Origin: a virus
Taxonomy: Duplodnaviria; Caudoviricetes
DNA length: 55,633 nucleotides
Direction: 5' to 3' (one strand)
Virus record (IMG/VR): IMGVR_UViG_3300032092_000037
Span: 1-55,633 of that record
Position numbers and translations under genes: made by a program
Part shown: in pieces, positions 13,283 to 54,124 of the stretch
How positions within the stretch are numbered: position 1 is the stretch's first letter
Layout: the number at the start of each line of letters is the position of its first letter
The notes under the pieces: generated by a model
Told to the model about the DNA's origin: nothing
The model's input: the letters and a program-made list of their open reading frames with translations, nothing else
Database searches by the model: none

Positions 13283-13298
13283 CGTTTCACGTGAAACA
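13283..13298. promoter_or_regulatory. parS: parS centromere-like site
   Basis: cGTTTCACGTGAAACA: perfect 14-bp palindrome, 15/16 match to TGTTTCACGTGAAACA; intergenic. Confidence 0.8.
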
Positions 13299-13322
13299 CT
13301 GTCCTTAACCAAGGGGGCTGGC

Positions 13323-13961
13323 GTGTCCCGTTTCTTCGACCAGCTCACCGAATTGGCCGGGCTCTACCCGATCAATGACGCGTTCATTGAGGCCTTGCGC
13401 CAGCGGGTGATCCGGGAATGCTCCAAGGTTCCGGTGCAGGTCCACAAGCGGATGAGGGCCGAGCGCAGGCTTGAACTGGCGGCCTGCGAGGCGATTGTCG
13501 CCATGTGGCAGGAGACCTACCTGGACGCCTGGTTCCCGATCACCATGCGCAGGGACTGGCCCCGCGCCATCTGCATCATCAAGGGCAACACGGCGCGGAT
13601 TTCCTTCAGCATCGGCCCCGAGACGGAAGACGGCGGGCAGGAGATCGAGCCTGTCGAGTTCGCGGTGGTCCGCACTCCGCCCAACATCATCAGCAAGGCC
13701 CTGCGGGCTTTCAACAAGCGCGACCCGAAAGCCGAGCGGGAGAGGGAATTCGCCCCGGTTGGCACGCCAGATGGGCGGCCGGAACTGAAGCTGAATCAGC
13801 CTGTCGACCAGAAGCAAGCATTTCGGGCCCAAACAGCCAAAAAGCCTATTGATAGCAAAGCTGTAATGGTGGCGCCCAAAAGCGAAAGATCAACCCCGCC
13901 CCCGCTCACAGAGCGTCCGCCGACCGCCAAGCCGACGCGCAGGGCCAAGCTGGGGCGTTGA
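13323..13961 (+). CDS. Hypothetical protein
   Basis: AAGGGGG SD then GTG; basic Pro-rich tail. Confidence 0.65.
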   Translation: MSRFFDQLTELAGLYPINDAFIEALRQRVIRECSKVPVQVHKRMRAERRLELAACEAIVAMWQETYLDAWFPITMRRDWPRAICIIKGNTARISFSIGPETEDGGQEIEPVEFAVVRTPPNIISKALRAFNKRDPKAEREREFAPVGTPDGRPELKLNQPVDQKQAFRAQTAKKPIDSKAVMVAPKSERSTPPPLTERPPTAKPTRRAKLGR

Positions 13962-13990
13962 GAACCAGCGCGGGATGGGGTAGATTTTAA

Positions 13991-14120
13991 GTGTCGCGGC
14001 GGCGTGGATAGACACGCCCATTGCCTAGCCGAATGGTTGCTAGGGTTGGAACTCCGTCTCTCGGAATCCGAGGGAGACTTGCAAGCACGGAGAGCCGGTA
14101 ACCAACCCGGCCCGCGACAC
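13991..14120 (+). ncRNA. Expanded tRNA-like cloverleaf RNA
   Basis: 9-bp closing stem GTGTCGCGG/CCGCGACAC, D-like arm GCGTG-GATAGA-CACGC, T-like arm GCCGG-TAACCAAC-CCGGC abutting the 3' strand, two enlarged central arms. Confidence 0.6.
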
Positions 14121-14151
14121 GAAATCAGCCTCGGATGAGGCAGAACGAGAC

Positions 14152-14236
14152 GGGGGAGTTGCGGGTTCGAATCCCGCCAGCCGATGATCGGGTTTCTAGG
14201 CCCCGTAGGCTGTAGCTCAATTGGCAGAGCGCCCCC
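14152..14236 (+). tRNA. Circularly permuted tRNA-like gene (3' half precedes 5' half; anticodon undefined)
   Basis: GGGGG-AGTT-GCGGG TTCGAAT CCCGC-CAGCCGA (14152-14184), about 20-nt linker, then TAGGCTG-TA-GCTC AATTGGCA GAGC-G-CCCCC (14206-14236); acceptor (6/7) and anticodon (5/5) stems pair across the halves. Confidence 0.75.
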
Positions 14237-14251
14237 ACCCCGCCCAAACGC

Positions 14252-14279
14252 AAAAGCCCCGCCGTGTGAGGGCGGGGCT
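14252..14279 (-). terminator. Intrinsic terminator for the minus-strand gene 14302..15165
   Basis: AGCCCCGCC/GGCGGGGCT stem followed by TTTT on the minus strand. Confidence 0.7.
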
Positions 14280-14301
14280 CAGGCCATCGGGATCGACCGG
14301 C

Positions 14302-15165
14302 TCAGGTATCGTTCGCCGCGACAAGGAAGGGTTTGAACCCCTGCGGCGGTTTGGCTTTGGCGGCTTCCTTTGCCGCTTTGGCCCTGGCCTTTTCGCGGGC
14401 AGCGCGCTGTTGGGCGCGAAGTTCGCGGGCCTTTTCCTGGCGGCGCTCTTCGCGCTTTGCCTCGGCTTTCGCCTCAGCGGCCAGTTTCGCCTCATGATCC
14501 TTGCGGATCCTGCGGGCGGTGGCTTCAAGGGACCAGATCGCGAGGGCAATCGAGAGGTCCAGAAGCCCGCCGACCAGCCAAACGGCCCAATCGGGGGCCA
14601 GCGGGCGGTAGGTGGCCTCGGCAGCGCTCAGGGCCTTGAGGGCGGCTGAGCGGTCAGCCTTGGCGGTTTCGACTGCAAGCGCCAGCGGCGCACGTTGGGC
14701 TTCCCACGATGCGGTTTTCGCCGCGGTCGTCTTGGGGCAGAGGCAGTCGGGAAGGGCGAGGGCCGGGAAGGCGTCGAGAGCGGCCTGCGCCTTCTCGAGC
14801 CGATCCGTGGTCCTGCCAACCTCGAGCTTTAGCGGCTCGAGACCGGCTTCGAAGGCGGCCTTGTGGGGCGCTTCGATGACGACGCCGTAGAAATTGTGGA
14901 AGCTCACGGCCTGCATGGCCATCGCAACCATCAGAACCGGGATCACGCCGGCCGACGCCCAAGAGCGTCCGAGGGCAATCACGGTGAAGGGAATGACCAG
15001 GGCCGTAGCGCCAGCGCCAAAGGCGAGGGCGAAGCGGGTGATCTGGTCCATGTCGCTCTGAAGCCAGCCATAGAGCCCGAGGGCGCCCATGGCGAAGGAA
15101 AACAGCGCGAGGAAGACAAGGCCGGGCTTGAACCCGGCGGGTTTGGTCTTGATAACAGTGGTCAT
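14302..15165 (-). CDS. Moron membrane protein (about 3 TM, coiled coil, TM, basic tail)
   Basis: Hydrophobic segments, Ala/Glu/Lys coiled coil with CLC at its turn; own promoter and terminator, opposite to flanking genes. Confidence 0.75.
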   Translation of the reverse strand: MTTVIKTKPAGFKPGLVFLALFSFAMGALGLYGWLQSDMDQITRFALAFGAGATALVIPFTVIALGRSWASAGVIPVLMVAMAMQAVSFHNFYGVVIEAPHKAAFEAGLEPLKLEVGRTTDRLEKAQAALDAFPALALPDCLCPKTTAAKTASWEAQRAPLALAVETAKADRSAALKALSAAEATYRPLAPDWAVWLVGGLLDLSIALAIWSLEATARRIRKDHEAKLAAEAKAEAKREERRQEKARELRAQQRAAREKARAKAAKEAAKAKPPQGFKPFLVAANDT

Positions 15166-15194
15166 TGGTCAGCTTTCTCTGATCAATCAGACCG

Positions 15195-15309
15195 TCCGGC
15201 GGTGAGACGCCGTGCGATCCGGCCGGGGGCTTAGGCTCCCGGCTGTTGGGTTTGTGGTCGATCCTGCGATGTCAATTCGCTCTCCGGCGGCAAACTCGCG
15301 CCGTGCGAT
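15195..15309 (-). repeat. Duplicated hairpin motif in the 5' leader
   Basis: TCCGGCGG-N5/N8-CGCCGTGCGAT at 15195-15218 and 15283-15309. Confidence 0.7.
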
Positions 15310-15378
15310 AGTGAGAACCTAGCCGCTCGCCCTGAGCATTTCGCCGTTACACCAAGCGTTATTTCGCGAACGGCGGGC

Positions 15379-15407
15379 AGTATTTGATCACATTCGCGTG
15401 ATCGCAA
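15379..15407 (-). promoter_or_regulatory. Moron promoter with operator-like palindrome
   Basis: Minus TTGCGA-N17-AATACT; GATCAC-N6-GTGATC at 15386-15403. Confidence 0.55.
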
Positions 15408-15448
15408 GCATTTGCCAAATCCAGCGCAAGTAAACGAGGCGCGAATAC

Positions 15449-15691
15449 ATGCACACTTACATCAAGCTAAAGCGCCCGAGGTTCGGCGGTGATGCGGTGA
15501 TGCTCATCGACCGTGCCTTCTACAAACTGGACCTTGCCAAGCAGCGCGAGATGATCCGAGCGATGCTTGATCAGGGCCGCTCTGTGGATCAAGCCATAAC
15601 CCGCGCCATCAATGCTGGCGCCATGCCCGCCACCGAGGCCACCCGCAACGCAGAGGCGGCCGTGCTTCGCGGACAGCCGGAGACGGCGTGA
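15449..15691 (+). CDS. Hypothetical protein
   Basis: GAGG SD; 80 aa. Confidence 0.55.
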   Translation: MHTYIKLKRPRFGGDAVMLIDRAFYKLDLAKQREMIRAMLDQGRSVDQAITRAINAGAMPATEATRNAEAAVLRGQPETA

Positions 15692-15909
15692 TGTCGAACT
15701 ATCTTCGATTGGCGGAAATCTACATGGCGCCGCATCTTTACGCCGCAGAGTTCAGGATGACGCCCAACCTGGGGGATGTCGTCAATGTCGAGCACCCCGA
15801 CGTGCTGGGGGCGGTCGCAATTGGCCCCATGGGCTGGAAGAATCAGCGCGACATGATTGTTCGCGCGCAGGAAACGCGCGGGCGCGCGATCAAACCAGTC
15901 TGGTGTTAA
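15688..15909 (+). CDS. Hypothetical protein
   Basis: Coupled to the upstream gene. Confidence 0.5.
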   Translation: MMSNYLRLAEIYMAPHLYAAEFRMTPNLGDVVNVEHPDVLGAVAIGPMGWKNQRDMIVRAQETRGRAIKPVWC

Positions 15910-15991
15910 GCCCAGCCTGAACCCCTTCCCAGCGCCGGGCAGTCGCCACTGAGCGACGCCGGCTCACCCTTCCTCAACAAAGGTCGCAGCA

Positions 15992-16258
15992 ATGGCCGTA
16001 ACCTCTGTCAACGACACGGCGACAAGCACCGTTCTTGTCGCGCCCAGCACGGCGCTGGTTGGCGTTTCCGTGTTCAACGACTCGACGGCCATTCTCTACA
16101 TCCTTCAGGGACAGGGAACGGCCAGCGCGACAAACTTCAGCGTCAAGCTCGACGCTGGCGATTACTGGGAGAGCCCGGATCGTTCATATGTGCGCGGCGG
16201 CCTCACCGGCATCTGGGCGAGCGATGCGTCGGGCGCCGCCCGCATAACGACGTGGTGA
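15992..16258 (+). CDS. Small beta-rich putative virion protein
   Basis: VSVFNDSTAILYI...ASATNFSVKL...GIWAS; Thr/Ser/Ala-rich. Confidence 0.65.
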   Translation: MAVTSVNDTATSTVLVAPSTALVGVSVFNDSTAILYILQGQGTASATNFSVKLDAGDYWESPDRSYVRGGLTGIWASDASGAARITTW

Positions 16259-16262
16259 CCTG

Positions 16263-16805
16263 ATGCCGCTCTACAAAGCCTCAGCATCCGAACTGGCCGC
16301 CCTTGTCGCGGCCGACACCAACACGTCCGGCTTCATCAAGGATACCGAAGGCTGGCGCATCCTGGGCGCGTCCGGCGTCGCCGTCTCCCACACCGGCAAC
16401 ACCTCAGAAACCGCGCTTTCGACCACCGCCGTTGCCGCTGGCGCAATGGGCCCCAACGGCATCCTTCGTGTTCGCGCCCTGTTCAGCTATACCAACAGCG
16501 CGAACAACAAGAACCTGCGCATTCGCCTCGGCGGCGTCTCAGGCACCGAGTTCGCCAACATCACGGCCACCACGACCGTCCATCACGATATCATCCGCAC
16601 GATCCACAACCGCAACTCGGCCTCATCGCAGGTTGGCATACTTGCCACATCAACAAACCCCCTGACGGCATCCTCCGGTGCACTTATCGCCGGAACCATC
16701 AACACCGCCAACGCGCAGGATCTGGTGATTTCCGGCCAGCTCGCCAGTTCAGGCGAAACCGTCACCCTGGAAAGCTACATCGTTGAACTGAAGTACGGCG
16801 CCTAG
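16263..16805 (+). CDS. Putative virion protein
   Basis: Thr/Ser/Gly-rich beta-type 180-aa ORF. Confidence 0.65.
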   Translation: MPLYKASASELAALVAADTNTSGFIKDTEGWRILGASGVAVSHTGNTSETALSTTAVAAGAMGPNGILRVRALFSYTNSANNKNLRIRLGGVSGTEFANITATTTVHHDIIRTIHNRNSASSQVGILATSTNPLTASSGALIAGTINTANAQDLVISGQLASSGETVTLESYIVELKYGA

Positions 16806-16829
16806 CGCCTTTGAGTGGAGGACCAAGCC

Positions 16830-17318
16830 GTGACGACCAAACTTCGTTTTCGCCGCAATGACCCAGCCCTGAACAGGGTTGCGAACGTTTCCACGCGACT
16901 GGTTGCGGCCGGCGCAACCCTCACCATGGTGCAGGACACGCACGAGGCGAAGATCATCTGCCTCGACACCGCAGCCGGCAGCGTCGTCACGCTTCCCCCC
17001 TCCACCGGGGGCGGGGCCATCTATCGCTTTCTCGTCACCGTGACGGCGACCAGCAACAGCCACGTCATCAAGGTCGGCAACGCCACGGACGAGTTCCGCG
17101 GCTTTGTCGTGCAGGACAGCGACACGGCCACAGCCCCGAATATCTGGTGGGCGGCCGACAACGATGACACCATCACGCTCAACCGCACGACAACCGGCCT
17201 TGCGGCCCAGGGCGAGTATTTCGAGATTGTCGACGGCCTCGCCGGCCATTTCATGGTTCGCGGCTTCAGCCAGGCCTCCGGCACCGAGGCAACGCCCTTC
17301 AGCGCGACGGTTTCCTAA
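16830..17318 (+). CDS. Putative capsid decoration/fibre-like protein
   Basis: GGAGG SD; VVTLPPSTGGGAIYRFLV...DTITLNRTTTG...ATPFSA. Confidence 0.65.
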   Translation: MTTKLRFRRNDPALNRVANVSTRLVAAGATLTMVQDTHEAKIICLDTAAGSVVTLPPSTGGGAIYRFLVTVTATSNSHVIKVGNATDEFRGFVVQDSDTATAPNIWWAADNDDTITLNRTTTGLAAQGEYFEIVDGLAGHFMVRGFSQASGTEATPFSATVS

Positions 17319-37749: not shown

Positions 37750-40700
37750 ATGCCAGCTCCATGGGAAAAAGCCGCAGCGGTGAAGCAGCCGCAGCCATCG
37801 CCCGCGCCTGCGCCAGCCGGCCGCAAGCCGTGGGAAAAGGCTGCGGCGCGAACCGTCCCCGCGCGCGACAACTTCCAGATGATCAAGCCCGAGGCGCGCG
37901 AACGTGTTGCGGCGATGCAGGGCGAGCGCAGCCTGCCGATGGCGAGGCCGGCCGACCCGAACGCGCCGAACCCGATCACCACGGCTGTGCGGCAGAGCCA
38001 GGCTGATACGGGCAACGCGTTTGCAGAAGAGGCGCGACGCAGGCAGGAGCGCCGCGACGCCTCGCGCGTCAACATGGGCGATATGCTCATCACGCACGAT
38101 GACAGCGGCAATCTGCGCCCGGGCACAGAAGCAGATCGCGACCTGTCCAAAGCAATGATGGCGGCGACGCCAAATGCCCTGTCAGACCTTGGCGAAGCCA
38201 TTGTCAACGCACCGGGAGACATCGCGCAAACCGTTATGGGCGGGCAGCGTGTGATTCCGCGCGCAGACCTTCCGCGCGCCGATATGACCTACGAGTCGCC
38301 AGTCGGTGAAGTGGCTGGTCCGGCCATGGAAAACCTCATGCAGTTTGCGCTGGCGCGGCGTCTGGCTGGAAAGGTTGCGCCCGGCGGTGGTCCCATCGCC
38401 TCCCGTGCAAAGGATGCCGCATCGGTTCTGGCGGGCGTCGATAGCGATGAAGAGGACTGGGGCCGCCTTGCAGATATGGTCAATGCGGCCGTGCAGGAGT
38501 CTGGTTCGCCTGATCAGGTAAAGGCCGCAGTGGGCTGGCTGGCGGAGCGCGACCCCAGCAATCCCGTGGTCGAGCGCCTCAAGAACGTCATTGACTTTGT
38601 GCTTCCCGATGAGGCGGCCCGCCTTGCTGGTCGCGGCGTCGTGGCCGCAGATCGCGCGCTCATGGGGAAGGGGGCTGTCACCCCTACCAACGCAGGTGGC
38701 GCACGTCCCGGCCCCGTCACGCCCCGCAACGCCCTTGCCCCCCGGCCTTCAGTCGCTCCCGTCGCCCAGCCCGCCATCCCGCAGGCTCCTCCCGCCGCTG
38801 CTCAGGCGCGGCCTGCCGGCGCGGGGCAGCAGGCTCCCGGCGGGGCGCAGCCCGCCCTCAATGCCGTTCCCGTCTCTCCGACTGTCTCCAAGGCTCAGGC
38901 CAGAGAGGCCAAGGACACGGCTGTCATCCTCGGGCGCCTCATGCGTTCCGGTGGGATCAAGAACGACGCGATACGTCGGTATCTGCCGGGACTGATACAG
39001 CGATATGAAAGCCTGGGTGACAGCCGCGTTCCCCTTGCGCGTTTCATAGAACGTGATCTTCCGCAGCATTTTCCTGAAGGGGTTGCGGGTGATGTCACCG
39101 CAAAGCTTCGCGGGTTTGGACGCGAACGCGATGCGAGCACAGGCCCGAAGGATACCTCCCGCTATACGATGCAGGAGACGAAAAAGGGGCTTCGCAGCTC
39201 GCAGCAGGATCATCTGACAGAGGTTATCCGAAGCAACACATACAAGAAAGAACTGATCGACGCTGAGGACAAGATCAGGGCGGACATGCGCCTTAACGCA
39301 GAGGCGGGGTATGAGACAGCGCTTGATCTTGGAATCGAGAAGCTGGTCAGCCGCACAGCAAAGCCGGAAGAGTTGAAGGCTGCCGAGACGCTCAAAGGTT
39401 TGATGGCCTCGGAGCCGTTTACAAGTCGCATCCCGGAGCACGTCAAGGTGCAGGCGATGCGAACGGGCAAAACCATCGAAGACATGATTAAGGAAGACCC
39501 GTTCCGCACGGCGCACTGGCTGCAATCAGCTTTGGGCAAGGCAGAACGGGCGGCGCAGGGACTTGGAGGAAAGGCCACACCCGAGTCGCTACTCTACAAG
39601 GAATTGCGCGATGCTGTGCTGGAACCGCTAGAAAATTCTATTTCTGGATACAAGGGCGCCCGCAATGCCCACGGCGACCTGTTTGGAGCCGATGAGGCGC
39701 TGGAATTCGGGGAGGACTTGTTCCTTGCCGCTCGCTCTGAAGTCGAGACGGCCCGCAAGGCGCGTGATTTCAACAAGCTGTCCAAGCAGCAGCAGACTGT
39801 TGCGACCATGTCGATCCGCGACAAGCTGCTCAACGAGTTTCGTGGCACGCCAGAGGATGCGGCAGCCAAGCTCACCCGGATGCAGCAGGAAGGCGTTCTC
39901 AATGCCATTGAGCGCATCCTTGGTGCGGATGGTAAACGCATCACGGCCGCAATCCGTGAGACGGTCGAGGAAAACGACTGGCTGAGATCGATCGATCAGG
40001 GCTCAGGCTCGCCTACATTCGGTAATGCCGCCGGCGCACGGGATGCTGCCGAGAATGTCCGTGGCCCGATCAACAAGGCTGTCGGATCACTTGGCGACAA
40101 GCGCACTTATCTTGGTGCAGTCGTCGGTGATGTGGTGCTGTCCAGCGTCGGCGTTCCGCCAGTTCTGACGGTTGGCAAGGCGACCAGTGACGCAGTCGGG
40201 GCGGCGGGCAGGCCCAGCGCGCGGCAGTTGTCGAATGCGACGAAAGGCCTGTTTGGCCTACCAGAACCCAAGCCTACAGGCAATGCGCTTGCTTCGCCCC
40301 CGCGCCAGCCTCGTGCGCCGCGCAAAGCCAAGCCGCCCGAACAACTCGAAGCCGATCTCGAAACGCTTCTGAAGCAGTACGACCAGGTTGATCATCGCAA
40401 CAATCCGACCGAGTCGGCGCGCATCCTCAAAAAGATTGACGCGCTGAAAAAGAAGATTGGCGTTCCTTCCACACGCCCCAGCGGCTCCCCTCCCGATCAG
40501 GCGGGGTTTGGCGGCCGTCCCAAGCCCCTGCCGATGGACGAAGCCTCTCGAATGCAGAGAGCGAGACAGCAGGGGTTTGATGTCGATACGCCGCTGTTCC
40601 ATGGGACGAACAAGGACATTGAAGCGTTTGCCGTTCCTCCGCCGTCGCGCGCTGGCTTGCGTGAGGATGACGCTGTTTTCCTGACGGACGCGCCGGACCT

Positions 40701-42942
40701 TGCGAGCAGCTACGCCAAGGGCGAGGGTGCAAACGTTATACCTGTATTCGCCCGCGTGAAAAACCCCTTCCGTTATGATGCGAAGGGAGAGAACTGGGTT
40801 CGTGCGTGGCCGTCTGCCATGGTGCGCGCCAAGCGCGGCGGCCATGATGGCGTTATCGTCACGAACGTCGATGATTGGGGCGACGCGAAGGCTGGAGCCG
40901 ACGCCAGAAACATGGGCGACAAAATCCTCGGCAGGCCCCGCGCGCTTCGCACGGTCTACGCCGTCTTTGACCCCGCAAACATCCGCTCAGTCAACGCCAC
41001 CTTCGACCCCTCCGAAACACAAAGCAGCAAGCTTCTAGCTGGTACAGGAGGAAAAGCGCGCGGCATCGTAGACAATCTCAAGCAGGATGTGGCTCTTGCT
41101 GGTTTTGGCTCAGTCGGAGGCTCGTTCGCCAATCAGGACGATCCGCAGGCTGGCGCTCTAGGCGGTATGGCGCTCGCGCTTGGGGCCAAGTACGGCGGTC
41201 GCGGCGCTCGTGCTCTCGGCAACGCGCTGAAGGGCGGGAGGCCTCCGAAGGGGCCGACGCCGAAGGGGGCTGGCGTGTCGCTTCAGAACGCCGAGAAAAT
41301 CCTGGCTGACTTCCGCGTTGCCCGCGAACTGTCAGACGAGCAGCTTGCACCTGTAGCCGATGCGATCAACAAGGAAATGCGCCGTCTTCAGACCAAGACT
41401 GTAGACGTGAACGGCGAACGCATTCCGTATTCCAACACCACTGAAGGCTATGAGCGCGTCATGCGGCTCAACGGCCTACTCATGAATGCCTTCAAGAATG
41501 CATCTGGCGAGATCGACATCGCAAAGGCGATGCGCTGGGCCGAGAAGAACGACCCTGACCGCGTTATGCGGGTGGAGGCCGGGCGTGCGGCGAATGATAT
41601 GCAAGATGGCGTGCGGCGTACCGAGCGCGCCACCCCCAAGCCCCCGCCCCGCGCCCAAGGCTTCGGTGGATCAGGCAAAGGGCCGGCGGGGAAGGGGCCG
41701 CAGATGTCCGGCAAGGTCATCTCGGAACTGGAGCGTGCGAAAAAGACCCTGCCGCCAGAGGTGCGCAACAAACTAGCCGCAAATGCCGCCAAGCCACCCG
41801 CCCTGCGGGTTTCGGCCGCAGAAGCGACGGGGGACGACCCGTCCATCTACGCCATGGCTGCCCCTTTCCAGCGCTCCCGCAAGCCGCTCATTGCCCGTCG
41901 CGCGCCGCCGAACATGGTAGAGAGGGGCGTCAACGAAGGCATGGCGCGCGTTGAGGCGCAAGCAGGCAAGCCGCCGCCATTGGACGAAGCTGGCGAGGCT
42001 GTGCGGCTTTCAGAACGCCAGCGCCGGGCCGCCAAAGCTGACGCACAGACTACAGCCAACAGGCTCAATCCCTACGCCAATGAGGCCGCAGGCATTCCTG
42101 ACAAGCCCCTTCCCAAGCGGGTGGCTACACGTGAAGAGGATGCGACGAAGCTTGCCATTGCATCGCGCGAGATGCTGGCCAAGCACCGCCTCACCGCAAA
42201 CGAATACGAACAGGCCGTGGCCTACGCCAATGCACGAAAGGCCAAGATTGCCGACGCCCTGCTGACGGGTCGCGTTGCCCCTCCCGGCCGTCCCGGGGCA
42301 ACATCTACGGGTGTTCTTCCTGGTTCCGCCGGGCAGCCCCTTCCGCCTCGCAGGATGTCCCCCGTGTCGCGTCGGGAGGCCGATGAGATGGCTGCGCTGG
42401 TGTTCGACAAGGAGCGGGCCCAGTTGCTCGATGACGTTCTGTCTGGTCGCGTGGTCCCGCGCAATCGCTCGGCGCATCACGCGGCGTTGCTGCTGGCAGC
42501 CGGATCAACAATTGGTGCTGTCGGCGGTGCGGCTGTCATTGCCGATATTCAGAACGCGGCAAACAACCGGCGTGCGGCAAACGCGGATCAGAAGGCAGAC
42601 GAGCCTGTCTACGACAATCCCGGCGATCCTCGCTTCGTGTGGGATTGGGAGAAGGTGAAGTCTGAGCGCAACCCGGCGATGCAGAACATTCAGATCCAAC
42701 TCAACCGTCTGCCGCCGAATGCGTCAGGCGGAAGGTACAACCTGAAGACAGACGGCCGCTGGACCAAAAGTGGCGAGACGGATCGCGCGATCCGAAACTG
42801 GCTCTACGAGAATGGCTTCGATCCGAATGGGCCGTTCACGATGGATCACTGGACGTTGCTGGACAAACAGGTGCTGGAAGGCGAGCAGACTACCAGAGCG
42901 GCCCCCGCCCGTCGTTCCCGCGATGCCATGCCCACGCCGTGA
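37750..42942 (+). CDS. Large ejection/polyvalent protein with ART-PolyVal-like and peptidoglycan-binding-like domains
   Basis: 1730 aa in the gp16 position; LFHGT...VFLTD...ASSYA...VIPVFARVKNP...GHDGVI...AVFDPANIRS; C-terminal IQIQLNRL...LKTDG...TDRAIRNW. Confidence 0.75.
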   Translation: MPAPWEKAAAVKQPQPSPAPAPAGRKPWEKAAARTVPARDNFQMIKPEARERVAAMQGERSLPMARPADPNAPNPITTAVRQSQADTGNAFAEEARRRQERRDASRVNMGDMLITHDDSGNLRPGTEADRDLSKAMMAATPNALSDLGEAIVNAPGDIAQTVMGGQRVIPRADLPRADMTYESPVGEVAGPAMENLMQFALARRLAGKVAPGGGPIASRAKDAASVLAGVDSDEEDWGRLADMVNAAVQESGSPDQVKAAVGWLAERDPSNPVVERLKNVIDFVLPDEAARLAGRGVVAADRALMGKGAVTPTNAGGARPGPVTPRNALAPRPSVAPVAQPAIPQAPPAAAQARPAGAGQQAPGGAQPALNAVPVSPTVSKAQAREAKDTAVILGRLMRSGGIKNDAIRRYLPGLIQRYESLGDSRVPLARFIERDLPQHFPEGVAGDVTAKLRGFGRERDASTGPKDTSRYTMQETKKGLRSSQQDHLTEVIRSNTYKKELIDAEDKIRADMRLNAEAGYETALDLGIEKLVSRTAKPEELKAAETLKGLMASEPFTSRIPEHVKVQAMRTGKTIEDMIKEDPFRTAHWLQSALGKAERAAQGLGGKATPESLLYKELRDAVLEPLENSISGYKGARNAHGDLFGADEALEFGEDLFLAARSEVETARKARDFNKLSKQQQTVATMSIRDKLLNEFRGTPEDAAAKLTRMQQEGVLNAIERILGADGKRITAAIRETVEENDWLRSIDQGSGSPTFGNAAGARDAAENVRGPINKAVGSLGDKRTYLGAVVGDVVLSSVGVPPVLTVGKATSDAVGAAGRPSARQLSNATKGLFGLPEPKPTGNALASPPRQPRAPRKAKPPEQLEADLETLLKQYDQVDHRNNPTESARILKKIDALKKKIGVPSTRPSGSPPDQAGFGGRPKPLPMDEASRMQRARQQGFDVDTPLFHGTNKDIEAFAVPPPSRAGLREDDAVFLTDAPDLASSYAKGEGANVIPVFARVKNPFRYDAKGENWVRAWPSAMVRAKRGGHDGVIVTNVDDWGDAKAGADARNMGDKILGRPRALRTVYAVFDPANIRSVNATFDPSETQSSKLLAGTGGKARGIVDNLKQDVALAGFGSVGGSFANQDDPQAGALGGMALALGAKYGGRGARALGNALKGGRPPKGPTPKGAGVSLQNAEKILADFRVARELSDEQLAPVADAINKEMRRLQTKTVDVNGERIPYSNTTEGYERVMRLNGLLMNAFKNASGEIDIAKAMRWAEKNDPDRVMRVEAGRAANDMQDGVRRTERATPKPPPRAQGFGGSGKGPAGKGPQMSGKVISELERAKKTLPPEVRNKLAANAAKPPALRVSAAEATGDDPSIYAMAAPFQRSRKPLIARRAPPNMVERGVNEGMARVEAQAGKPPPLDEAGEAVRLSERQRRAAKADAQTTANRLNPYANEAAGIPDKPLPKRVATREEDATKLAIASREMLAKHRLTANEYEQAVAYANARKAKIADALLTGRVAPPGRPGATSTGVLPGSAGQPLPPRRMSPVSRREADEMAALVFDKERAQLLDDVLSGRVVPRNRSAHHAALLLAAGSTIGAVGGAAVIADIQNAANNRRAANADQKADEPVYDNPGDPRFVWDWEKVKSERNPAMQNIQIQLNRLPPNASGGRYNLKTDGRWTKSGETDRAIRNWLYENGFDPNGPFTMDHWTLLDKQVLEGEQTTRAAPARRSRDAMPTP

Positions 42943-43238: not shown

Positions 43239-43838
43239 ATGGCTAAGCAAGCAGATACCACGAAATCGCGTGCATTGCGCAAGTGCCGCTTTGAAAGCTG
43301 TGATCGAACGGTCGGCACTAAAGGAGCAAAGGGACTTTGTCCTGCACACTACAGGCAGTCTAAGGTGGGCGAGCTGCGCCCGATCATTAAGAAGATGCGC
43401 CGAGTGCCCGGCGCGGTGTGCTTAGTAGACGGGTGCGAAAAGCGAGATGGGCGGTTCTCTGCTGGCATGTGCAATGCGCATTATCTGCGCAGTTACAGGC
43501 ACGGTGATCCAAACATTCTCTTGAAAACGCAGGACGGGGAGCCTGCAAAGTGGATAAAGTCGATGGTTGGGTTTTCTGGGACAGAATGCCTGACATGGCC
43601 ATTTGCCCGCGACCCAGGCGGCTATCCGTGTAAACATACATTTGACGGGAAACCCATTCGAGCGCATCGCGTCATGTGCATACTTGTGCACGGCGATCCG
43701 CCGTTCCCAAAAGCGGAAGCGGCACATTCTTGCGGAAACGGAAATCTAGGCTGCGTGAACCCAAACCATTTGAGTTGGAAAACTCACGCAGAAAACATGG
43801 CCGACTTGGCCATTCACTATCGAGAACGCCGCCGCTAG
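43239..43838 (+). CDS. HNH (His-Cys) homing endonuclease with N-terminal zinc-finger repeats
   Basis: AAGGAG SD; C...C...GLCPAHY and GMCNAHY; ECLTWP, AHRVMC, AAHSCGN...CVNPNHL...EN; lower GC. Confidence 0.85.
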   Translation: MAKQADTTKSRALRKCRFESCDRTVGTKGAKGLCPAHYRQSKVGELRPIIKKMRRVPGAVCLVDGCEKRDGRFSAGMCNAHYLRSYRHGDPNILLKTQDGEPAKWIKSMVGFSGTECLTWPFARDPGGYPCKHTFDGKPIRAHRVMCILVHGDPPFPKAEAAHSCGNGNLGCVNPNHLSWKTHAENMADLAIHYRERRR

Positions 43839-48737: not shown

Positions 48738-49166
48738 ATGGAAATACTGCTGAAGGAACAGCTTGAGCTTCAGAAGCGCACGGCTGAGCGGACGGACTGG
48801 GACAAGATCGCGGCTTTGCAGGAAGCCGTTTCCGTCCTGAAGTCGCGCTTTGAGGGCGCGCTGGACAGCATCCGCGAAAGGCTTGGGGATGCTGTGGGCG
48901 ATGAAGATATCAAGGAACTGAAACGAGAGTGGGAGACGGCATTGCGTGAAGCAATAAACGGCATCCGCGAACACTTCGCGACGGCGAACGAGAACCAGTC
49001 ACATGCGCTTCTGGCGCAGGTCGAGCTGATGCTTGCGCGCGACCGGGAAGCGGCGGCGAACGAAGCAAAGAAGACGCGACAGCAATTCCTGTTCCTGATC
49101 CTCGGGGCGGTGCTGTCAATTTTGGGCGCGCTGTTTGTGTTTTGGGAGACGACCGCGCGCCTGTAG
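48738..49166 (+). CDS. Coiled-coil protein with C-terminal TM (holin-like position)
   Basis: Helical charged body and FLFLILGAVLSILGALFVFW. Confidence 0.65.
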   Translation: MEILLKEQLELQKRTAERTDWDKIAALQEAVSVLKSRFEGALDSIRERLGDAVGDEDIKELKREWETALREAINGIREHFATANENQSHALLAQVELMLARDREAAANEAKKTRQQFLFLILGAVLSILGALFVFWETTARL

Positions 49167-49185: not shown

Positions 49186-50388
49186 ATGGGCAAGTTTCTA
49201 GACAAGTTCCTTGAGTTCAAGAACGAGGCCGATGCAACGCGCAAGTTCGCGCTGTTCGCCGTCGTCATCATCACTTTCGGTCTGGCTTCGTTGTCCGTTA
49301 CGGGCATCGTTGCGACCGCCAACTGGAACTGGCTGAGCGCCCTTCCCATCATCGGCATGATTGTGGCCGTGCTGGGCGCGGAGCTTCTGGCGACGGTCGC
49401 CTTTATCCGCATGCTGACCGCATCGACCCGCTGGCGCAAGGTGGCCGGCGCGCTGATCTTTGTTGGCCTTGCTGCGGTCGGTGTGAAGAATGCCGAGAAC
49501 GGCGCCCATGTGGTGTGGCCGGATCGCTTTGCCGAAAGCTCCTCGTCTCTGGCCGCCAAAGCTCAGCTTGCAGGCGAGGAAGCCGGGACGCTGGGCGAAG
49601 CTCAGCAGGCGGCCATCAGCGGGACCGGCGCCGAACTGGAGCGCGTCAGGACGCAGATCGCCAATCTGGAAGTCGAACAGCGCAAGATGGCGGCGCAGTC
49701 GCCCGAAGGCGTTGCCGAAGCGCAGGCTCTGCTGCTGGCCCAAGGCAAGTATTTCGGCAGGGTCGATGGCATTCGGCAGGACTTGACCGAGGCGGCCATG
49801 CGCCGGCGTGGCGAGGAGATCGGCGCGGAACTGGCCGTGCTCAAGGCGCGCGAGACAGGGCTGTTGGCAGGGCAGGCGAGCCCGGTCCAGCAGGCAACCA
49901 CAGACAAGCGCCTGTTGCAGATCGAGCAGGCCGATGCGGCCAGTGCTGCCTTCTGGGCATGGTTCTGGCTCATCCTCATGCTCTGCGTGCTGGAAACTGC
50001 CCGCTCGCTGTCCCTCTGGGCGCTCATCACCGACATCAGCGCGAATGACGCCAAGCGCGACCGGGAGCGTTCGGACGAACTGGCCGAACTACGCCACCGC
50101 AAGGAAGTGGCGGACATGTTGGCGTCAATGGCCCCAGCAGCCCCGCCTGTCGCGGCTGAGCCTCCCCCGGCCCCACCCCCACCCCCGGAGCCAGAACCCG
50201 CACCAGCGGCCCCGCCAGAGCCAGAGCCCATTGTTCTGGTCGATCCCCCGGCCCCAGTGAACCAATCCGCCCGCAAAGGCGGAAAGAACTCGTCCATGAA
50301 GAAAGCCGCAGCCAAAGCGGCGCGTAACCGCGTGTTGATCCTTGCTGACCGCAGCAATGCACAAGCCATGAAGGTTGCCGCAGAATGA
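49186..50388 (+). CDS. Membrane protein: 3 TM, coiled coil with PG-binding-like tip, TM, Pro-rich tail
   Basis: GGAGGG SD; VAEAQALL..QGKYFGRVDGI...TEAAMR resembles PG_binding_1. Confidence 0.7.
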   Translation: MGKFLDKFLEFKNEADATRKFALFAVVIITFGLASLSVTGIVATANWNWLSALPIIGMIVAVLGAELLATVAFIRMLTASTRWRKVAGALIFVGLAAVGVKNAENGAHVVWPDRFAESSSSLAAKAQLAGEEAGTLGEAQQAAISGTGAELERVRTQIANLEVEQRKMAAQSPEGVAEAQALLLAQGKYFGRVDGIRQDLTEAAMRRRGEEIGAELAVLKARETGLLAGQASPVQQATTDKRLLQIEQADAASAAFWAWFWLILMLCVLETARSLSLWALITDISANDAKRDRERSDELAELRHRKEVADMLASMAPAAPPVAAEPPPAPPPPPEPEPAPAAPPEPEPIVLVDPPAPVNQSARKGGKNSSMKKAAAKAARNRVLILADRSNAQAMKVAAE

Positions 50389-51902
50389 AAGACTGGCTCG
50401 CTGTGGACCTCGGAACTCGCAACTCAGCCGTTGGCTATTACGGCCCGCGCGGTCCAGAAGTTCTCAAGGTGGACGGAGAGGTGCTTGTGCCCTCGGCCGT
50501 CATGCTTGTCCCCAAAGATGATCCTGCGCAGCCGTGGGAGATGGTGGTCGGCCAGCGCGCCCTTCGCGCCCGCGAACGCTCGCCCCGTTCGCCCTACTGC
50601 TTCACCAGCTTCAAGCGCCAGCTCGGTGCGGTTTACAACCGCGAGGAAGCTGTTCCCGAGCAGATGGTCCCGGCGGATGACGGGATGCTGCATTATGAGG
50701 GCCCCAATGGGCACACATACCCGCCGGAGGAACTGTGCTGCGAAATCCTCGCCTACCTCAAGGAATCTGCTGAGGCGAAACTCGGGAAGATAATCAACCA
50801 GGCCATCATCTGTGTCCCGGCAAGCTACAACATCGCCCAGCGGAACGCGCTCCGCAAGGCGGCAGCCATGGCGGGGTTCGATGAGATCGAGCTTCTGGAC
50901 GAGCCCGTCGCTGCGGCGATTGCCCACGGCTTTCAGGAAGACGCTGACACGGTGAGCCGCATCTTTGTTGTGGACGTCGGGGCGGGAACAACGGACACGG
51001 CAGCGTTCGAGATTGGCGGCGGCCTGTTCCGCGTGCTTGGCACAAACGGCGCGGCGCTCGTCGGCGGTGATGATTGGGATCGCCGGTTGCGCAGCTACAT
51101 CCTTGGCCTGCACGAGTTCGAGCACGAGAACTCCGAACTCACCACGAAGCCGGACGCGATGCGAATGTTGCTGGTCGAGGCCGAGAAGGCCAAACGTCGC
51201 CTGTCGGAAGACCAGCTTACAGAGTTCCGCGTCGAGGACATCGATATCGACAAGAAAACGGGAGAGGATGTCCACGTCATCCAGAAGGTGAGCCGCGACC
51301 ACATGGACGAGGCGACCAAGGAGCTTCTGGGCGACATCGAGGATGCGATGGCGCGCACCATGGCGCAGGCCAAGGAAAAGGACCCACGCTTTTCGATCAA
51401 CGATATCGACGCGGTTATTCTGGTCGGCGGCCAGACGCGCGTCCAGGCTATCCAGAGAAAGGTCGCGCATTTCTTCGGCAAGGCCCCGCGCTCTGATGTG
51501 GACCCGGAACTGGCGGTCGTGCTGGGCGCGGCGGTCAAGGCCGGCATCCGCGAAGGGCGTCTGGCCAGCATCACGCTGGAGCATATCACCTCGCACAGCT
51601 TCTCCATCGAGACGCATGACAAGCCGGAAGACGTGGCGACCGAGATTGTCCGCAAGGGCACAGCCTACGGAACGAAGGCTACGTGGTGGCTGCGTCCACG
51701 TGGGGACGAAGGCCAGTCGATCATGACGCTTCGGCTGCTTCAGGGCGACTTCAAGGAGCCGCATATGAACCTGCTGGTTTGGGAGCATCAGATCCCGTTT
51801 GATCCCGATGCCGTTGAAGATGTCCAGATGGATGTCGAGATCGGCCCATCAGGCGAGCCTATCATTGATGTTGCGGGCGTATCATTCGGCAGGGTGACAT
51901 GA
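50385..51902 (+). CDS. Hsp70/DnaK-family ATPase lacking the helical lid
   Basis: AVDLGTRNS, VPSAV, SFKRQLG, AIICVPA, DEPVAAA, VDVGAGTTD, GGDDWD, AEKAKRRLS, VILVGGQTR, linker ITSHSFSIET; 505 aa. Confidence 0.92.
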   Translation: MKDWLAVDLGTRNSAVGYYGPRGPEVLKVDGEVLVPSAVMLVPKDDPAQPWEMVVGQRALRARERSPRSPYCFTSFKRQLGAVYNREEAVPEQMVPADDGMLHYEGPNGHTYPPEELCCEILAYLKESAEAKLGKIINQAIICVPASYNIAQRNALRKAAAMAGFDEIELLDEPVAAAIAHGFQEDADTVSRIFVVDVGAGTTDTAAFEIGGGLFRVLGTNGAALVGGDDWDRRLRSYILGLHEFEHENSELTTKPDAMRMLLVEAEKAKRRLSEDQLTEFRVEDIDIDKKTGEDVHVIQKVSRDHMDEATKELLGDIEDAMARTMAQAKEKDPRFSINDIDAVILVGGQTRVQAIQRKVAHFFGKAPRSDVDPELAVVLGAAVKAGIREGRLASITLEHITSHSFSIETHDKPEDVATEIVRKGTAYGTKATWWLRPRGDEGQSIMTLRLLQGDFKEPHMNLLVWEHQIPFDPDAVEDVQMDVEIGPSGEPIIDVAGVSFGRVT

Positions 51903-53149
51903 ACGACGCGTTGCATGTTGGCGAATGGTTCTTTCGCGAAATCGACGAGTTCGAGAACGCGCCGCACGATTGCAGGCAGACAGCGGACGGATGCGCACTG
52001 GATGCGTATTTGTGCCCAAGCGACCAGTGGACCATTGGCGATGGCTGCTGCTTCTGGGAGGATGGCCGTCCGGTCAAAAAGGGCGATACGCTGCCCGATG
52101 ATGAGACGCTGCCCGAGCGTCGCCGCAAGCTTCTCGCCTTCAATGCCAAGTATTGCGAGGAGTATGTCCGCAGGCACGTCACGGTTCCGCTCAACCAGAA
52201 CCAGTTTGATGTGCTGTGCAGCTTCCGCTTTAACACGCGCGAGACGACGCTGAGCGGATCGTCGCGGTTGCTTCCTGCGATCAATGCGCAGAAGTGGCAG
52301 GACGCTGCGATTGCCATGACAGAGTTTGTCTATGGCTCCGGCTCCAAACGCGGGCCAGCAACACTGCCGCCGAAGGGCTGGGACGTTGCGAAGATCGGCG
52401 GCGAATGGTGGGCGATTCCGCCTGAGCACATGACGGGCGCCGAGCGCGTGTCGCTGGGACCGGAAGAGAAGACCTACCCCTACCAGGACGCGCACCGAGG
52501 CCTGCTGCGCCGTCGCCTCTGGGGCGCCCTTGTGTTTCTCGGATACGATCCGCGCGATGTCACGAAAGACAATGACGTGGCGCTGCCGACAAAGGCCAAG
52601 CTGCTGTCGTCTGGCGTCTGGCGCGACAAGATCAGCGAGGAGGGGCTGACCACACTGGCGCATGTTCGCGCGCGCGCATCGCTTCTGCCGCCTTCAGAGC
52701 TTGTCCTTTCCACCCCCATCAAAGCTGAGCCTGTCAGCGTCCCTGCAGGAACAGCGGGTCAGCCGGAGCGCCCCCCCCAACCCAGCGCTCCGGCTGTACC
52801 TGCACAGAAACCCGCTGCTGCGTCCCCGGCAGCGGCCTCGGCGGCGAGCCCCGGCGTATCTCAGGGCTCGCCGCCACCAGTTGTGAACGTGCCTGCGAAG
52901 GTCGCGCCTCCACCGCTTCCGAAGGATGCAGCGCCAGCGAGCATCGAGCCTAAGGACATGATCCTTAGCAAACGTTTCTGGGGCCTCACGGTCACAGCGC
53001 TGGGGACGACCAACCTCCTGCCGCAAGCCGCGCAAACGTGGATCAGCAACGAAGGCAATCGCGAACTGATCACATGGCTCGTCGTCGTGCTGATCGGCTT
53101 TGCGCTCTACAAGTATGGTCAGCACAAAGCGCGGAAGCCGCTCAAATGA
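51899..53149 (+). CDS. GH24 lysozyme endolysin with Pro/Ala linker and two C-terminal TM helices
   Basis: FE...AYLCPSDQWTIG, PLNQNQFDVLCSF.FN, GLLRRR; C-terminal SKRFWGL... Confidence 0.85.
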   Translation: MNDALHVGEWFFREIDEFENAPHDCRQTADGCALDAYLCPSDQWTIGDGCCFWEDGRPVKKGDTLPDDETLPERRRKLLAFNAKYCEEYVRRHVTVPLNQNQFDVLCSFRFNTRETTLSGSSRLLPAINAQKWQDAAIAMTEFVYGSGSKRGPATLPPKGWDVAKIGGEWWAIPPEHMTGAERVSLGPEEKTYPYQDAHRGLLRRRLWGALVFLGYDPRDVTKDNDVALPTKAKLLSSGVWRDKISEEGLTTLAHVRARASLLPPSELVLSTPIKAEPVSVPAGTAGQPERPPQPSAPAVPAQKPAAASPAAASAASPGVSQGSPPPVVNVPAKVAPPPLPKDAAPASIEPKDMILSKRFWGLTVTALGTTNLLPQAAQTWISNEGNRELITWLVVVLIGFALYKYGQHKARKPLK

Positions 53150-53454
53150 ACATTGCAGCGATCGGCACCGGCATTTGGTCGTTTCTGAAGCGAATCCCCG
53201 ACTGGGTGCTCTGGACCATCGCCGCTCTCGTGTTCCTCAAGTTCGTGGACATCAATGCCGAGCGGCGCGGCCGGCGGAAGGAAGCGGACAAGCGCGACCG
53301 CGAGGCGCTGGAAGTCGAGCGTGAAGTTGTCAGCAACATTCAGGAGAATACCGATGAAGCCATTCGCAGCGCTGATGCTGTGCGCGAGCATACCTCTGCT
53401 AGCGTCCTGCCAGACGGAACCGCAACCCTCCCGGACGCTCATTACCGCGACTGA
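53146..53454 (+). CDS. i-spanin (Rz-like)
   Basis: N-terminal TM then charged helix; follows the endolysin. Confidence 0.65.
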   Translation: MNIAAIGTGIWSFLKRIPDWVLWTIAALVFLKFVDINAERRGRRKEADKRDREALEVEREVVSNIQENTDEAIRSADAVREHTSASVLPDGTATLPDAHYRD

Positions 53455-53629
53455 TCGTGCCGTGTGGCGCGAGGCGCTTTGCTCGACCGGCAAGGCAATC
53501 CTGGTTTCGCGCGGCGATGTCCTGACCGTCGCAACAGCCGAGCAGATCGGGGACCACAATACGGTTTTGTGGTGCGAGTGCCCGCACCTGAGGCCTGCAA
53601 CTTTCGACGACGGCGTTTGCCGCGTCTAA
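53354..53629 (+). CDS. o-spanin lipoprotein (Rz1-like)
   Basis: AGGAG SD; lipobox LLASC; overlaps the Rz-like gene in another frame. Confidence 0.7.
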   Translation: MKPFAALMLCASIPLLASCQTEPQPSRTLITATDRAVWREALCSTGKAILVSRGDVLTVATAEQIGDHNTVLWCECPHLRPATFDDGVCRV

Positions 53630-53659: not shown

Positions 53660-53905
53660 GTGACTATGGGCTTCAAAATTGTCCGTGAAGACGGCAAGAC
53701 GGACTGGGGCTCGCTCCGCGCCGTGTTTTACTGCTTGCTCGTCACCTGGATTGTCGGCGTTCGCCTGATCGGACTGGACCCGTTCGATGATCTGCTGGCC
53801 GGCCGCTTCGACCTCGGCGTCATGTTCGACGTGCTGGCGCTGATCGGCGTCTACCTGCTGTGCTGGCATCTCATGTACCCGAACCGGCCCAAGGTGAACT
53901 TCTAG
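53660..53905 (+). CDS. Small two-TM protein
   Basis: GAGGAG SD; hydrophobic segments. Confidence 0.55.
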   Translation: MTMGFKIVREDGKTDWGSLRAVFYCLLVTWIVGVRLIGLDPFDDLLAGRFDLGVMFDVLALIGVYLLCWHLMYPNRPKVNF

Positions 53906-53908: not shown

Positions 53909-54124
53909 ATGTCCCGCGCAGCGCTCTCAGCTATTGCTCTGGGCGCTGCCGGGGCTGTTGGTCTTATCGTGCTCTGGCTTGACGGGTTCCGTCATGACTG
54001 CGAGGCGCGGTGGAAGGACTCGGGCTTCGAGCACGAGTACCGGCAGGGTCAGTGCATGGTGCTGGCAGGGAGCAGGTGGGTTCCTGCTTCAGCGGTGCGC
54101 GTTCACGTCAGGGAGCCGGGTTAG
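53909..54124 (+). CDS. Small exported/membrane protein
   Basis: N-terminal TM; CEARW...CMV...RWVP. Confidence 0.55.
   Translation: MSRAALSAIALGAAGAVGLIVLWLDGFRHDCEARWKDSGFEHEYRQGQCMVLAGSRWVPASAVRVHVREPG

Follow-up and report, generated by a model that had tools for sequence, protein, structure and literature searches.

The tailed-phage record IMGVR_UViG_3300032092_000037 of IMG/VR (Duplodnaviria; Caudoviricetes; 55,633 bp, estimated completeness approximately 92%), which is referred to here in its full length as the window, encodes an Hsp70-type ATPase between a membrane protein and an endolysin in a predicted lysis module. In this paper, we report that this Hsp70 belongs by sequence to a separate clade whose members end before the alpha-helical lid, and that the linkage of such genes to lysis genes is old and strict and extends far wider than the window phage. 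We propose, with a probability of roughly 0.4, that the protein is a phage-specific, probably J-independent ATPase which serves as a working part of the lysis module, docks on the C-terminal tail of the neighbouring membrane protein and handles an endolysin that is anchored by its own C-terminus. The original prediction, made from the nucleotide sequence of the window, had described the gene as an Hsp70 within a lysis cassette. Its linkage to lysis and its adaptation to the phage are supported by the results below, and the roles offered at the time (folding, holding or releasing the endolysin, or timing lysis) stay conditional.

Phage lysis of Gram-negative bacteria is described as the work of holin, endolysin and spanin, with regulation known from antiholins and releasins. 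To our knowledge, no ATP-driven chaperone takes part in the described scheme. A search of full-text literature, with subscription journals and supplements outside its scope, returned no report of an Hsp70 in a phage lysis cassette, and where Hsp70, holin and spanin were mentioned together the Hsp70 occurred in the reference list only.

Linkage of the Hsp70 gene to lysis genes

Among close relatives from IMG/VR, the order p142 (a small membrane protein), multi-spanning membrane protein, Hsp70, endolysin and spanins was kept in 23 of 27 loci; in the remaining four the Hsp70 is of the ordinary full-length kind (628-637 aa) and the gene context is unrelated. Three distant lineages have the same arrangement, namely L149, L151 (with metagenome copies L320 and L321) and L319. 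Their modules consist of a protein with a hydrophobic C-terminus, a protein with several transmembrane (TM) segments, a lidless Hsp70, a C-anchored GH24 endolysin and an i-spanin with a lipobox-bearing o-spanin. Identity among the Hsp70s of the five lineages, counting the window's own, is 30-52%.

The linkage was tallied over all loci fetched by asking for a GH24 match within 1.5 kb on the same strand where at least 600 nt of sequence was available downstream. Complete lidless open reading frames (ORFs) numbered 41, of which 39 had the necessary room and 34 of those had the GH24 match. Removal of duplicates reduced the 34 rows to 26 distinct contigs from five lineages, and the gene-neighbourhood survey that the original prediction had proposed found the linkage of the homologues to lysis kept in every one of them (26/26). 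In 23 of these contigs the Hsp70 and GH24 genes adjoin or overlap each other, and in the other three (L016, L019 and L030) they are separated by 660-819 nt, the gaps of L016 and L019 being occupied by a reverse-strand HNH gene. The five lidless-length ORFs that lacked a GH24 match (in L045, L046 and L050, one in L331, and L332) score 130-226 bits against the family profile and the linked ones at least 327 bits; the five were set apart by this profile score alone, outside the trees. As a control, 168 full-length Hsp70 ORFs with equal downstream sequence available (duplicates kept) were tallied, and a lysozyme gene followed none of them.

The sampling was defined by how the loci were found. Viral-contig scans with broad lidless-clade alignments used generic Hsp70 motifs as patterns, so that the best 80 loci were mostly full-length DnaK, and the only new lidless loci among these 80 were L149 and L151. 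Scans with single proteins led from P0147 to L319 and from P0277 to L320-L322; P0135 and P0137 had no match in viral contigs, nor did P0135 in metagenome contigs.

Some of the loci carry further genes of note. Reverse-strand HNH-like genes, recognised by eye from their Cys/His motifs, lie inside the lysis module of L016 (3639..4442), L019 (2945..3511) and L319 (8681..9319). On the metagenome contig L331, one strand carries three ORFs for Hsp70-like proteins of 500-527 aa (5983..7566, 7583..9166 and 10470..11972), the first two back to back. They score 141-226 bits against the family, no lysozyme is encoded close to them, and they seem to represent another kind of short-Hsp70 system. The viral contigs L045, L046 and L050 (71-248 kb; 7001..8530 in L050) encode a 509-aa Hsp70-like protein of lidless length, at 130 bits and with no lysozyme downstream, which is probably an independent shortening.

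Layout of the module in the window

The genes of the region, all on the forward strand, are as follows, with the basis of each assignment in brackets.

48738..49166, +, p142, a 142-aa coiled-coil protein with one C-terminal TM segment (118-134), C-tail-anchored (ORF, hydropathy)
49186..50388, +, 400-aa membrane protein with four TM segments (ORF, homologue starts, hydropathy, AlphaFold2)
50256..50385, +, tail of the membrane protein, its last ~44-45 residues (alignments, DNA breakpoints, codon differences)
50385..51902, +, lidless Hsp70, 505 aa (ORF, Pfam, DnaK alignment, model, trees)
51899..53149, +, GH24 endolysin, 416 aa (Pfam PF00959, PHROG, NCBIfam, hydropathy)
53146..53454, +, i-spanin candidate (sequence features only)
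53354..53629, +, o-spanin candidate (sequence features only)
53660..53905, +, p81, an 81-aa holin candidate with two TM segments (ORF, hydropathy)
53909..54124, +, 71-aa protein with one N-terminal hydrophobic segment (ORF, hydropathy, blastp)

The ATGA overlaps with both neighbours of the Hsp70 gene, as well as its phage-like codon usage, had been described at the outset and were both recovered. The stop codon of the membrane protein overlaps the Hsp70 start at 50385-50388, the Hsp70 stop overlaps the endolysin start at 51899-51902, and a third ATGA, at 53146, joins the endolysin stop to the i-spanin start. We read these overlaps as translational coupling from membrane protein to Hsp70, endolysin and i-spanin. 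The G+C content at third codon positions of the Hsp70 gene is 0.76, and its relative synonymous codon usage correlates with that of six structural genes at r 0.94.

The first gene of the conserved module encodes p142, and 23 of 27 loci have a homologue of it in the same place; in L149, L151 and L319 the ORF found there has a product that ends in a hydrophobic stretch (read by eye, unscored). No Pfam, PHROG or NCBIfam family was matched by p142 above cut-off. Two proteins of the module, p142 and the endolysin, are C-tail-anchored as judged by hydropathy.

Domain structure of the Hsp70

The Pfam HSP70 profile (PF00012) was matched with an E value of 3.6e-80, residues 7-490 falling on profile positions 4-477 of 599, and the alignment with E. 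coli DnaK extends from residue 5 up to DnaK residue 452. The protein is divided into a nucleotide-binding domain (approximately 1-390), an altered linker (I396-T-L-E399) and a beta substrate-binding domain (approximately 400-505). It ends at residue 505, right after the beta domain and with an extension of 0 residues beyond the profile, and the alpha-helical lid and C-terminal tail are absent. Both the point at which the profile stops and the end of the structural model, after the last beta strands, bear out the claim of a beta substrate-binding domain without a helical lid.

DnaK residues D8, K70, E171, D194, T199 and D201 align with D8, K77, E173, D197, T202 and D204 of the phage protein. 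The three motifs that had been named as catalytic equivalents in the original prediction are thereby located, with FKR at K77 (K70 of DnaK), DEP at E173 (E171) and GAGT at T202 (T199). All six positions are kept in 67-68 of the 68 members of the clade described below. In the beta domain, I408, L436, M447, L449 and V480 make up a hydrophobic pocket that stays hydrophobic in the clade, and Gln433 is kept in 63 of the 68 members. The AlphaFold2 model, obtained with 28 homologues, has a mean predicted local distance difference test (pLDDT) of 89.5 and a predicted template modelling score of 0.87, with strands at residues 397-501. Its best structural matches are ATP-state, domain-docked structures of DnaK (4b9q, 7kzu and 7krt; TMq 0.88-0.89, root mean square deviation 2.5-2.9 Å), and it is this domain-docked ATP-state fold that the model takes.

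Two sites that we take to matter for co-chaperone use have changed. Arg167 of DnaK, presumably the key J-domain contact, is arginine in 17 of 17 sampled DnaKs and is replaced by E169 in the window Hsp70; across the lidless clade this position is most often occupied by E (32), followed by H (10), T (8) and S (4). The interdomain linker VLLL of DnaK, to which we likewise attribute a functional role, reads I-T-L-E in the window Hsp70 and [LIF]-T-[IVL]-[QES] across the clade. No J-domain or GrpE match was obtained in the whole record at E ≤ 1, in agreement with the earlier statement that no such partner was visible. Because Arg167 is replaced, the linker is changed and the phage has no J-protein or GrpE genes, the Hsp70 probably works without a J protein; it may, nonetheless, use DnaJ and GrpE of the host. 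Since a Pfam MreB match (E 6e-16) was also recorded, an actin-like filament was considered and rejected: the match can be put down to the ATPase fold that both families share, and the presence of a beta substrate-binding domain is evidence against such a filament.

Placement in a separate clade

A search of 5.8 billion proteins returned 18 clusters of 408-511 aa at 53-100% identity, 14 of which were full-length (495-511 aa), and the next matches were cellular DnaKs at only ~32-37% identity. No relative above 30% identity was present among the best 80 loci kept from a scan of the genomes of 185,579 species, for which patterns specific to two subclades of the family (clade 1, which includes the window, and clade 2) were used. 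In the cultured-phage collection, Hsp70 matches reached at most 35% identity and were to contaminating host dnaK or megaphage genes. The NCBIfam scores were below the cut-offs for DnaK (NF001413, 271.2 vs 648 bits; TIGR02350, 266.6 vs 822.55 bits), HscA (211.1 vs 708.55 bits) and the YegD type (NF008673, 69.1 vs 331 bits); YegD itself is absent from the trees, its match covering fewer than 330 profile positions and being too divergent. Many further proteins of 475-525 aa that stop exactly at the end of the beta domain were found by a profile search of 1.84 billion representatives, and most members of the lidless clade have a C-terminal extension of 0-18 residues.

In a FastTree phylogeny of 196 rows, a branch with 100% support divided 68 lidless sequences from 128 others. 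On the lidless side were the 28 family members without exception, together with 40 of 51 further short representatives. The opposite side contained every DnaK, HscA and HscC of E. coli, two full-length phage Hsp70s and all long forms; the remaining 11 short representatives also fell there, outside the lidless clade. The same split was obtained with IQ-TREE on 64 rows (31 vs 33), at 100 in the Shimodaira-Hasegawa-like approximate likelihood ratio test. The phage Hsp70 is thus placed by tree in a separate deep lidless clade outside DnaK, HscA and HscC, and by score outside DnaK, HscA and YegD. The phylogeny against DnaK, HscA and HscC suggested in the original prediction does not nest it within host DnaK (100% support in two trees), and the view that the gene is no recent host pickup withstood the trees, the NCBIfam scores and the identities of 30% or less in the best 80 genome loci.

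The upstream membrane protein and its tail

Homologues of the membrane protein start at the ATG corresponding to 49186; the ORF list gives a TTG at 49135. By hydropathy, the TM segments are at residues 22-38, 58-74, 86-102 and 253-277, and the protein consists of three N-terminal TM segments, ~150 aa of long helices, the fourth TM segment, a charged helix, a Pro-rich linker and a conserved tail. The AlphaFold2 model is all-helical (pLDDT 67), with residues 316-367 disordered and the tail at pLDDT below 50. No family was found in Pfam, PHROG, NCBIfam or PADLOC and no match in the cultured-phage collection, and the neighbours in the protein atlas are unnamed phage proteins only. Within the predicted periplasmic part (residues ~176-205), the stretch LLLAQGKYFGRVDGIRQDLTEAAMRRRG resembles by eye a motif of peptidoglycan-binding domains; no Pfam match was returned.

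The tail differs from one Hsp70 lineage to the next. In clade 1 (the window and L006-L010) it is made up of R-K-G-G, a basic stretch, NRVLILADRSN and MKVAAE, and in clade 2 of R-Q-G-G, a basic stretch, ERLLVIGPxST and MKVAAE. The tails of L149, L151 and L319 have G-G and a basic stretch followed by ERLIVIPS, AVKVPVSD and KKIPVTDD, respectively. There are, accordingly, five tail types for five Hsp70 lineages, spread across two unrelated membrane-protein bodies. Locus L019 has a membrane protein 91% identical to that of the window, but with a clade-2 tail and a clade-2 Hsp70. Conversely, the body in L010 is of the second type (type B), 29-32% identical to those of L151 and L319 over ~340 residues and not homologous to the window body, and its last 52 residues are 85% identical to those of the window protein, with an Hsp70 of clade 1.

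The DNA bears the marks of these exchanges. The window and L019 are 94% identical over 49152-50255, have no detectable similarity over 50256-52696 and are 86% identical from 52697. In six clade-2 comparisons the left breakpoint lies at 50222-50255 and the right edge at 52697-53329. The exchanged unit comprises the tail, the Hsp70 and the lysozyme catalytic domain, and is cut at two Pro-rich linkers; as the breakpoints lie at these linkers inside coding sequence, protein domains rather than genes were exchanged. Over 13 DNA variants of the clade-2 tail, synonymous codon differences outnumber non-synonymous ones by 945 to 261 and ERLLVIGP is invariant, which indicates that purifying selection acts on the tail core at the peptide level; the codons of the linker were compared by position without alignment, a count that shows only that the linker is unconserved and is not a proper control. 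Among the partners, the tail alone has a sequence that tracks the Hsp70 lineage strictly.

The peptide NRLLLTG is a model substrate of DnaK. The tail sequences RVLILA, RLLVIG and RLIVIP resemble both this peptide and the linker that the Hsp70 has lost, a likeness that suggests two ways in which a tail could engage the chaperone. A complex prediction for the Hsp70 with residues 350-400 of the membrane protein scored 0.02, with a mark of 0.32, and speaks neither for nor against binding.

Endolysin, spanins and holin candidates

The endolysin matches Phage_lysozyme (PF00959, E 4.2e-19) and PHROG endolysin families. An N-terminal GH24 domain is followed by a Pro/Ala-rich linker of ~130 aa, a weakly hydrophobic Gly/Thr-rich segment, a strong TM segment at 390-406 and a basic C-terminus; the topology is drawn from hydropathy and the positive-inside rule only. 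This layout is the same in 19 of 19 distinct orthologues aligned, and in L149, L151 and L319 as well. Matches in the cultured-phage collection are confined to the catalytic domain (26-34% of the query). The C-terminal anchor occurs in at least three types, which reassort with the catalytic domain.

The i-spanin candidate, whose position is conserved, has an N-terminal TM segment and a charged periplasmic part (its start in the ORF list is a GTG at 53038). The o-spanin candidate has a signal peptide and the lipobox LLASC and is read in another frame overlapping the i-spanin gene. Its ATG at 53354 is preceded at 8 nt by AGGAG (the ORF list start is 53255), and counterparts with a lipobox exist in L149, L151 and L319. 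Neither candidate matched a family model in Pfam, PHROG or NCBIfam. Holin candidates by hydropathy are p142 (one TM segment), the four-TM protein and p81 (two TM segments; conserved by blastp in 12 of 27 loci), none of which has a family match.

Proposed role and alternative explanations

In the mechanism that we favour, the four-TM protein would have both ends in the cytoplasm, as predicted by hydropathy and the positive-inside rule, and the tail would therefore hang on a flexible linker at the inner membrane face. The Pro-rich linker would present the tail in the cytoplasm, where its basic and hydrophobic motif could dock the Hsp70 at the inner membrane, either by occupying the beta-domain pocket as a peptide or by providing in trans a replacement for the hydrophobic strand lost from the Hsp70's own linker. 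The endolysin would be tail-anchored or hairpin-anchored, with a catalytic domain that starts in the cytoplasm. Translated just ahead of it on one message, the Hsp70 may capture the hydrophobic anchor or the unfolded catalytic domain, hold the enzyme and then hand it over at the membrane protein, in the way that a targeting factor and its receptor serve tail-anchored proteins. Both ATP and the quantity of membrane protein would then govern the insertion of the endolysin into the membrane and, through it, lysis. Precedents for parts of this scheme are available in two reports: DnaK modulates insertion of the bacterial tail-anchored protein TssL (PMC3426401), and the endolysin M4Lys, which has a C-terminal TM domain, needs neither holin nor Sec to lyse cells (PMC7143992). 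Because an enzyme of the M4Lys type can do without them, endolysins with a C-terminal TM segment need restraint. A more specific form of the proposal, which we regard as rather unlikely, has the R-x-G-G and linker-like tail both recruiting and activating the lidless, J-independent Hsp70, which would then drive holding, delivery or threading of the endolysin by ATP.

A number of points weigh against the favoured mechanism. Many of the 26 contigs are close relatives, which leaves five lineages as independent evidence; the genomic surroundings are known for only three lineages beyond the immediate family, since among the 40 other clade representatives 37 are without context. Gene order is conserved in phage late operons anyway. 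The last tail codons carry a Shine-Dalgarno-like AAGG for the Hsp70 start, and the conservation of MKVAAE may reflect this ribosome-binding site rather than a peptide. Some of the co-inheritance of tail and Hsp70 is explained by linkage, because the tail adjoins the Hsp70 gene, and the clade-2 loci may share one ancestral junction, in which case there are about three independent junctions (clade 1 vs clade 2, L149 and L010). Lastly, within clade 2 the division of lysozyme domains into types B and C does not match the Hsp70 subclades, so that the catalytic domain, if it is recognised at all, is not recognised by type.

This last point fits an alternative in which the endolysin is no client at all. 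Here the four-TM protein would be a holin or antiholin and its tail an Hsp70 substrate, the chaperone acting as a nucleotide-dependent clamp that ties hole formation to ATP. The tail, and not the lysozyme type, tracks the Hsp70 lineage; the membrane protein is at the usual holin position upstream of the endolysin, and besides the small two-TM p81 there is no other clear holin. Lid-truncated DnaK is known for fast peptide exchange, and a lidless beta domain would be expected to behave likewise. We nevertheless consider such a clock doubtful. The four-TM protein, which is without a family, gives no sign of forming holes, and a two-TM holin candidate is encoded downstream (53660..53905). The explanation also leaves two regularities aside, namely that the Hsp70 gene is positioned between membrane protein and endolysin in every lineage and that the endolysin is always C-anchored.

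A role outside lysis would be that of a folding helper for the large virion proteins, i.e. the 1310-aa tailspike and the 1730-aa internal protein, with a location near the lysis genes that merely marks the end of the late operon. The host guarantees no chaperone capacity for large beta-helix proteins, the Hsp70 gene comes after the tail genes, and other phages and giant viruses carry full-length Hsp70 genes without linkage to lysis. The arrangement of the loci makes this improbable in our view: the position with start and stop overlaps is kept in five lineages whose structural genes are differently arranged, the tailspike-like ORF of L151, for example, being downstream of the module and that of the window upstream. 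A folding helper would, moreover, leave the co-inheritance and purifying selection of the tail unexplained, and ordinary Hsp70 ORFs neighbour a lysozyme in 0 of 168 cases.

Phages frequently carry altered copies of host regulators, and the protein could in principle be a DnaK mimic that titrates DnaJ, GrpE or sigma-32 or blocks a defence system. PADLOC gave one weak match (PDC-M61B, E 2.3e-5), which is confined to the shared ATPase core. The late-operon position and the coupling to lysis genes make host takeover or counter-defence very improbable, and mimicry towards DnaJ is unlikely because the J-contact position is not conserved. That the gene is a decaying fragment of a recently acquired host dnaK, as its shorter length and best named matches (DnaK) might suggest, is effectively ruled out by the 100%-supported split from DnaK, HscA and HscC in two trees, the catalytic residues kept across 68 clade members, an identity of ~33-37% to any DnaK, the phage-like codon usage and the precise, conserved ends at the close of the beta domain.

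Comparison with known systems

The phage Hsp70 shares with DnaK its fold, the domain order to the end of the beta domain, the catalytic residues and the hydrophobic peptide pocket, and differs in having no lid or C-terminal tail, in the changed VLLL linker and Arg167, and in the lack of a DnaJ or GrpE gene beside it. Engineered Hsp70s with truncated lids (BiP in 7a4u and, in 5obu, DnaK without the alpha part of the substrate-binding domain), both of which are among the fold matches, have the same domain content; these are laboratory constructs, whereas the phage protein represents a natural, old and diversified lineage. Members of the Hsp70 family are also encoded by closteroviruses and giant viruses. 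The closterovirus homologue acts in virion assembly and movement. The giant-virus loci fetched are 18-29% identical to the phage Hsp70, with no lysozyme downstream in those tallied.

For the proposed recruitment to the inner membrane, the nearest cellular parallel is HscC-DjlC of E. coli, in which an atypical Hsp70 is likewise encoded beside a membrane-anchored partner. DjlC is tail-anchored. It acts, however, through a J domain, and HscC (556 aa) is cellular, stands on the other side of the tree and is encoded outside any lysis module. The mtHsp70-Tim44, BiP-Sec63 and Get3-Get1/2 systems offer an analogy in which an ATPase chaperone is docked to a segment of a membrane protein and a client is handed over; the partners are not homologous, and the membrane side and clients differ. 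By analogy, the closest working model for the phage Hsp70 would be an Hsp70 that is recruited to the membrane, though with no J domain involved.

The window endolysin has counterparts in both phages and cells. M4Lys of phage BSPM4 has an N-terminal catalytic domain and a required C-terminal TM segment, as in the window endolysin (PMC7143992), and LysAP (phage AP1) and the Enc34 endolysin also have a C-terminal membrane anchor. As far as the descriptions compared here go, all three belong to other catalytic families and no Hsp70 gene is reported beside them. SpmX of the Caulobacterales has the same layout as the endolysin, with a GH24 muramidase, a Pro-rich middle and two C-terminal TM segments (10.1101/418723). 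It differs in being a cellular polarity factor and not a lysis enzyme, and the endolysin scores 17.8 against the NF051871 cut-off of 700 bits. Weak NCBIfam matches of the endolysin are to SpmX and to the gene-transfer-agent endolysin BgtA. Whether TM segments were already present in the ancestral phage gene is left open in the SpmX preprint (10.1101/418723); phage genes with an SpmX-like layout do exist in the group of the window phage.

Other observations on the genomes

The window phage encodes a terminase, a portal protein and a major head protein and has a tailspike-like ORF of 1310 aa, and no tRNA genes were found in the window. The best match of its major head protein in the cultured-phage collection is 37% identical, and by this measure the phage is without a cultured relative. 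The 1730-aa ORF at 37750..42942 contains a 'polyvalent protein'-type ADP-ribosyltransferase domain (PF18760, E 3.4e-13, residues 949-1082), and its product may be an ejected internal virion protein. HNH endonuclease genes are dispersed over the late region in the window and its relatives; in the window one of them (43239..43838, PHROG HNH families) lies between the 1730-aa ORF and the tailspike gene. Over positions 1..17000, seven of the eight large ORFs scanned (406-16805) had no Pfam family at E ≤ 0.001, and the eighth had a below-cut-off match to BTP only (19.5 vs 25.6 bits). In L149, a 383-aa reverse-strand ORF past the lysis module (6963..8114) looks by eye like a tyrosine recombinase or integrase; if it is one, some relatives would be temperate.

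Implications

The results suggest an undescribed chaperone step in the lysis of these phages. If the Hsp70 acts in lysis, an energy-dependent step would be added to the pathway, the protein would show that lidless Hsp70s operating independently of J proteins occur in nature, and there would be a handle on how C-anchored endolysins are kept harmless until due time. Should the membrane-docked control through the R-x-G-G tail be true, lysis would be gated by the chaperone cycle and the energy state of the cell, beyond holin triggering alone, and the tail would be the first natural substitute for a J domain that gives an Hsp70 its interdomain linker in trans. The layout of the endolysin is that from which the polarity factor SpmX is thought to derive. 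The pair of tail and Hsp70, with its five natural specificity variants, is a ready system for studies of Hsp70 recruitment.

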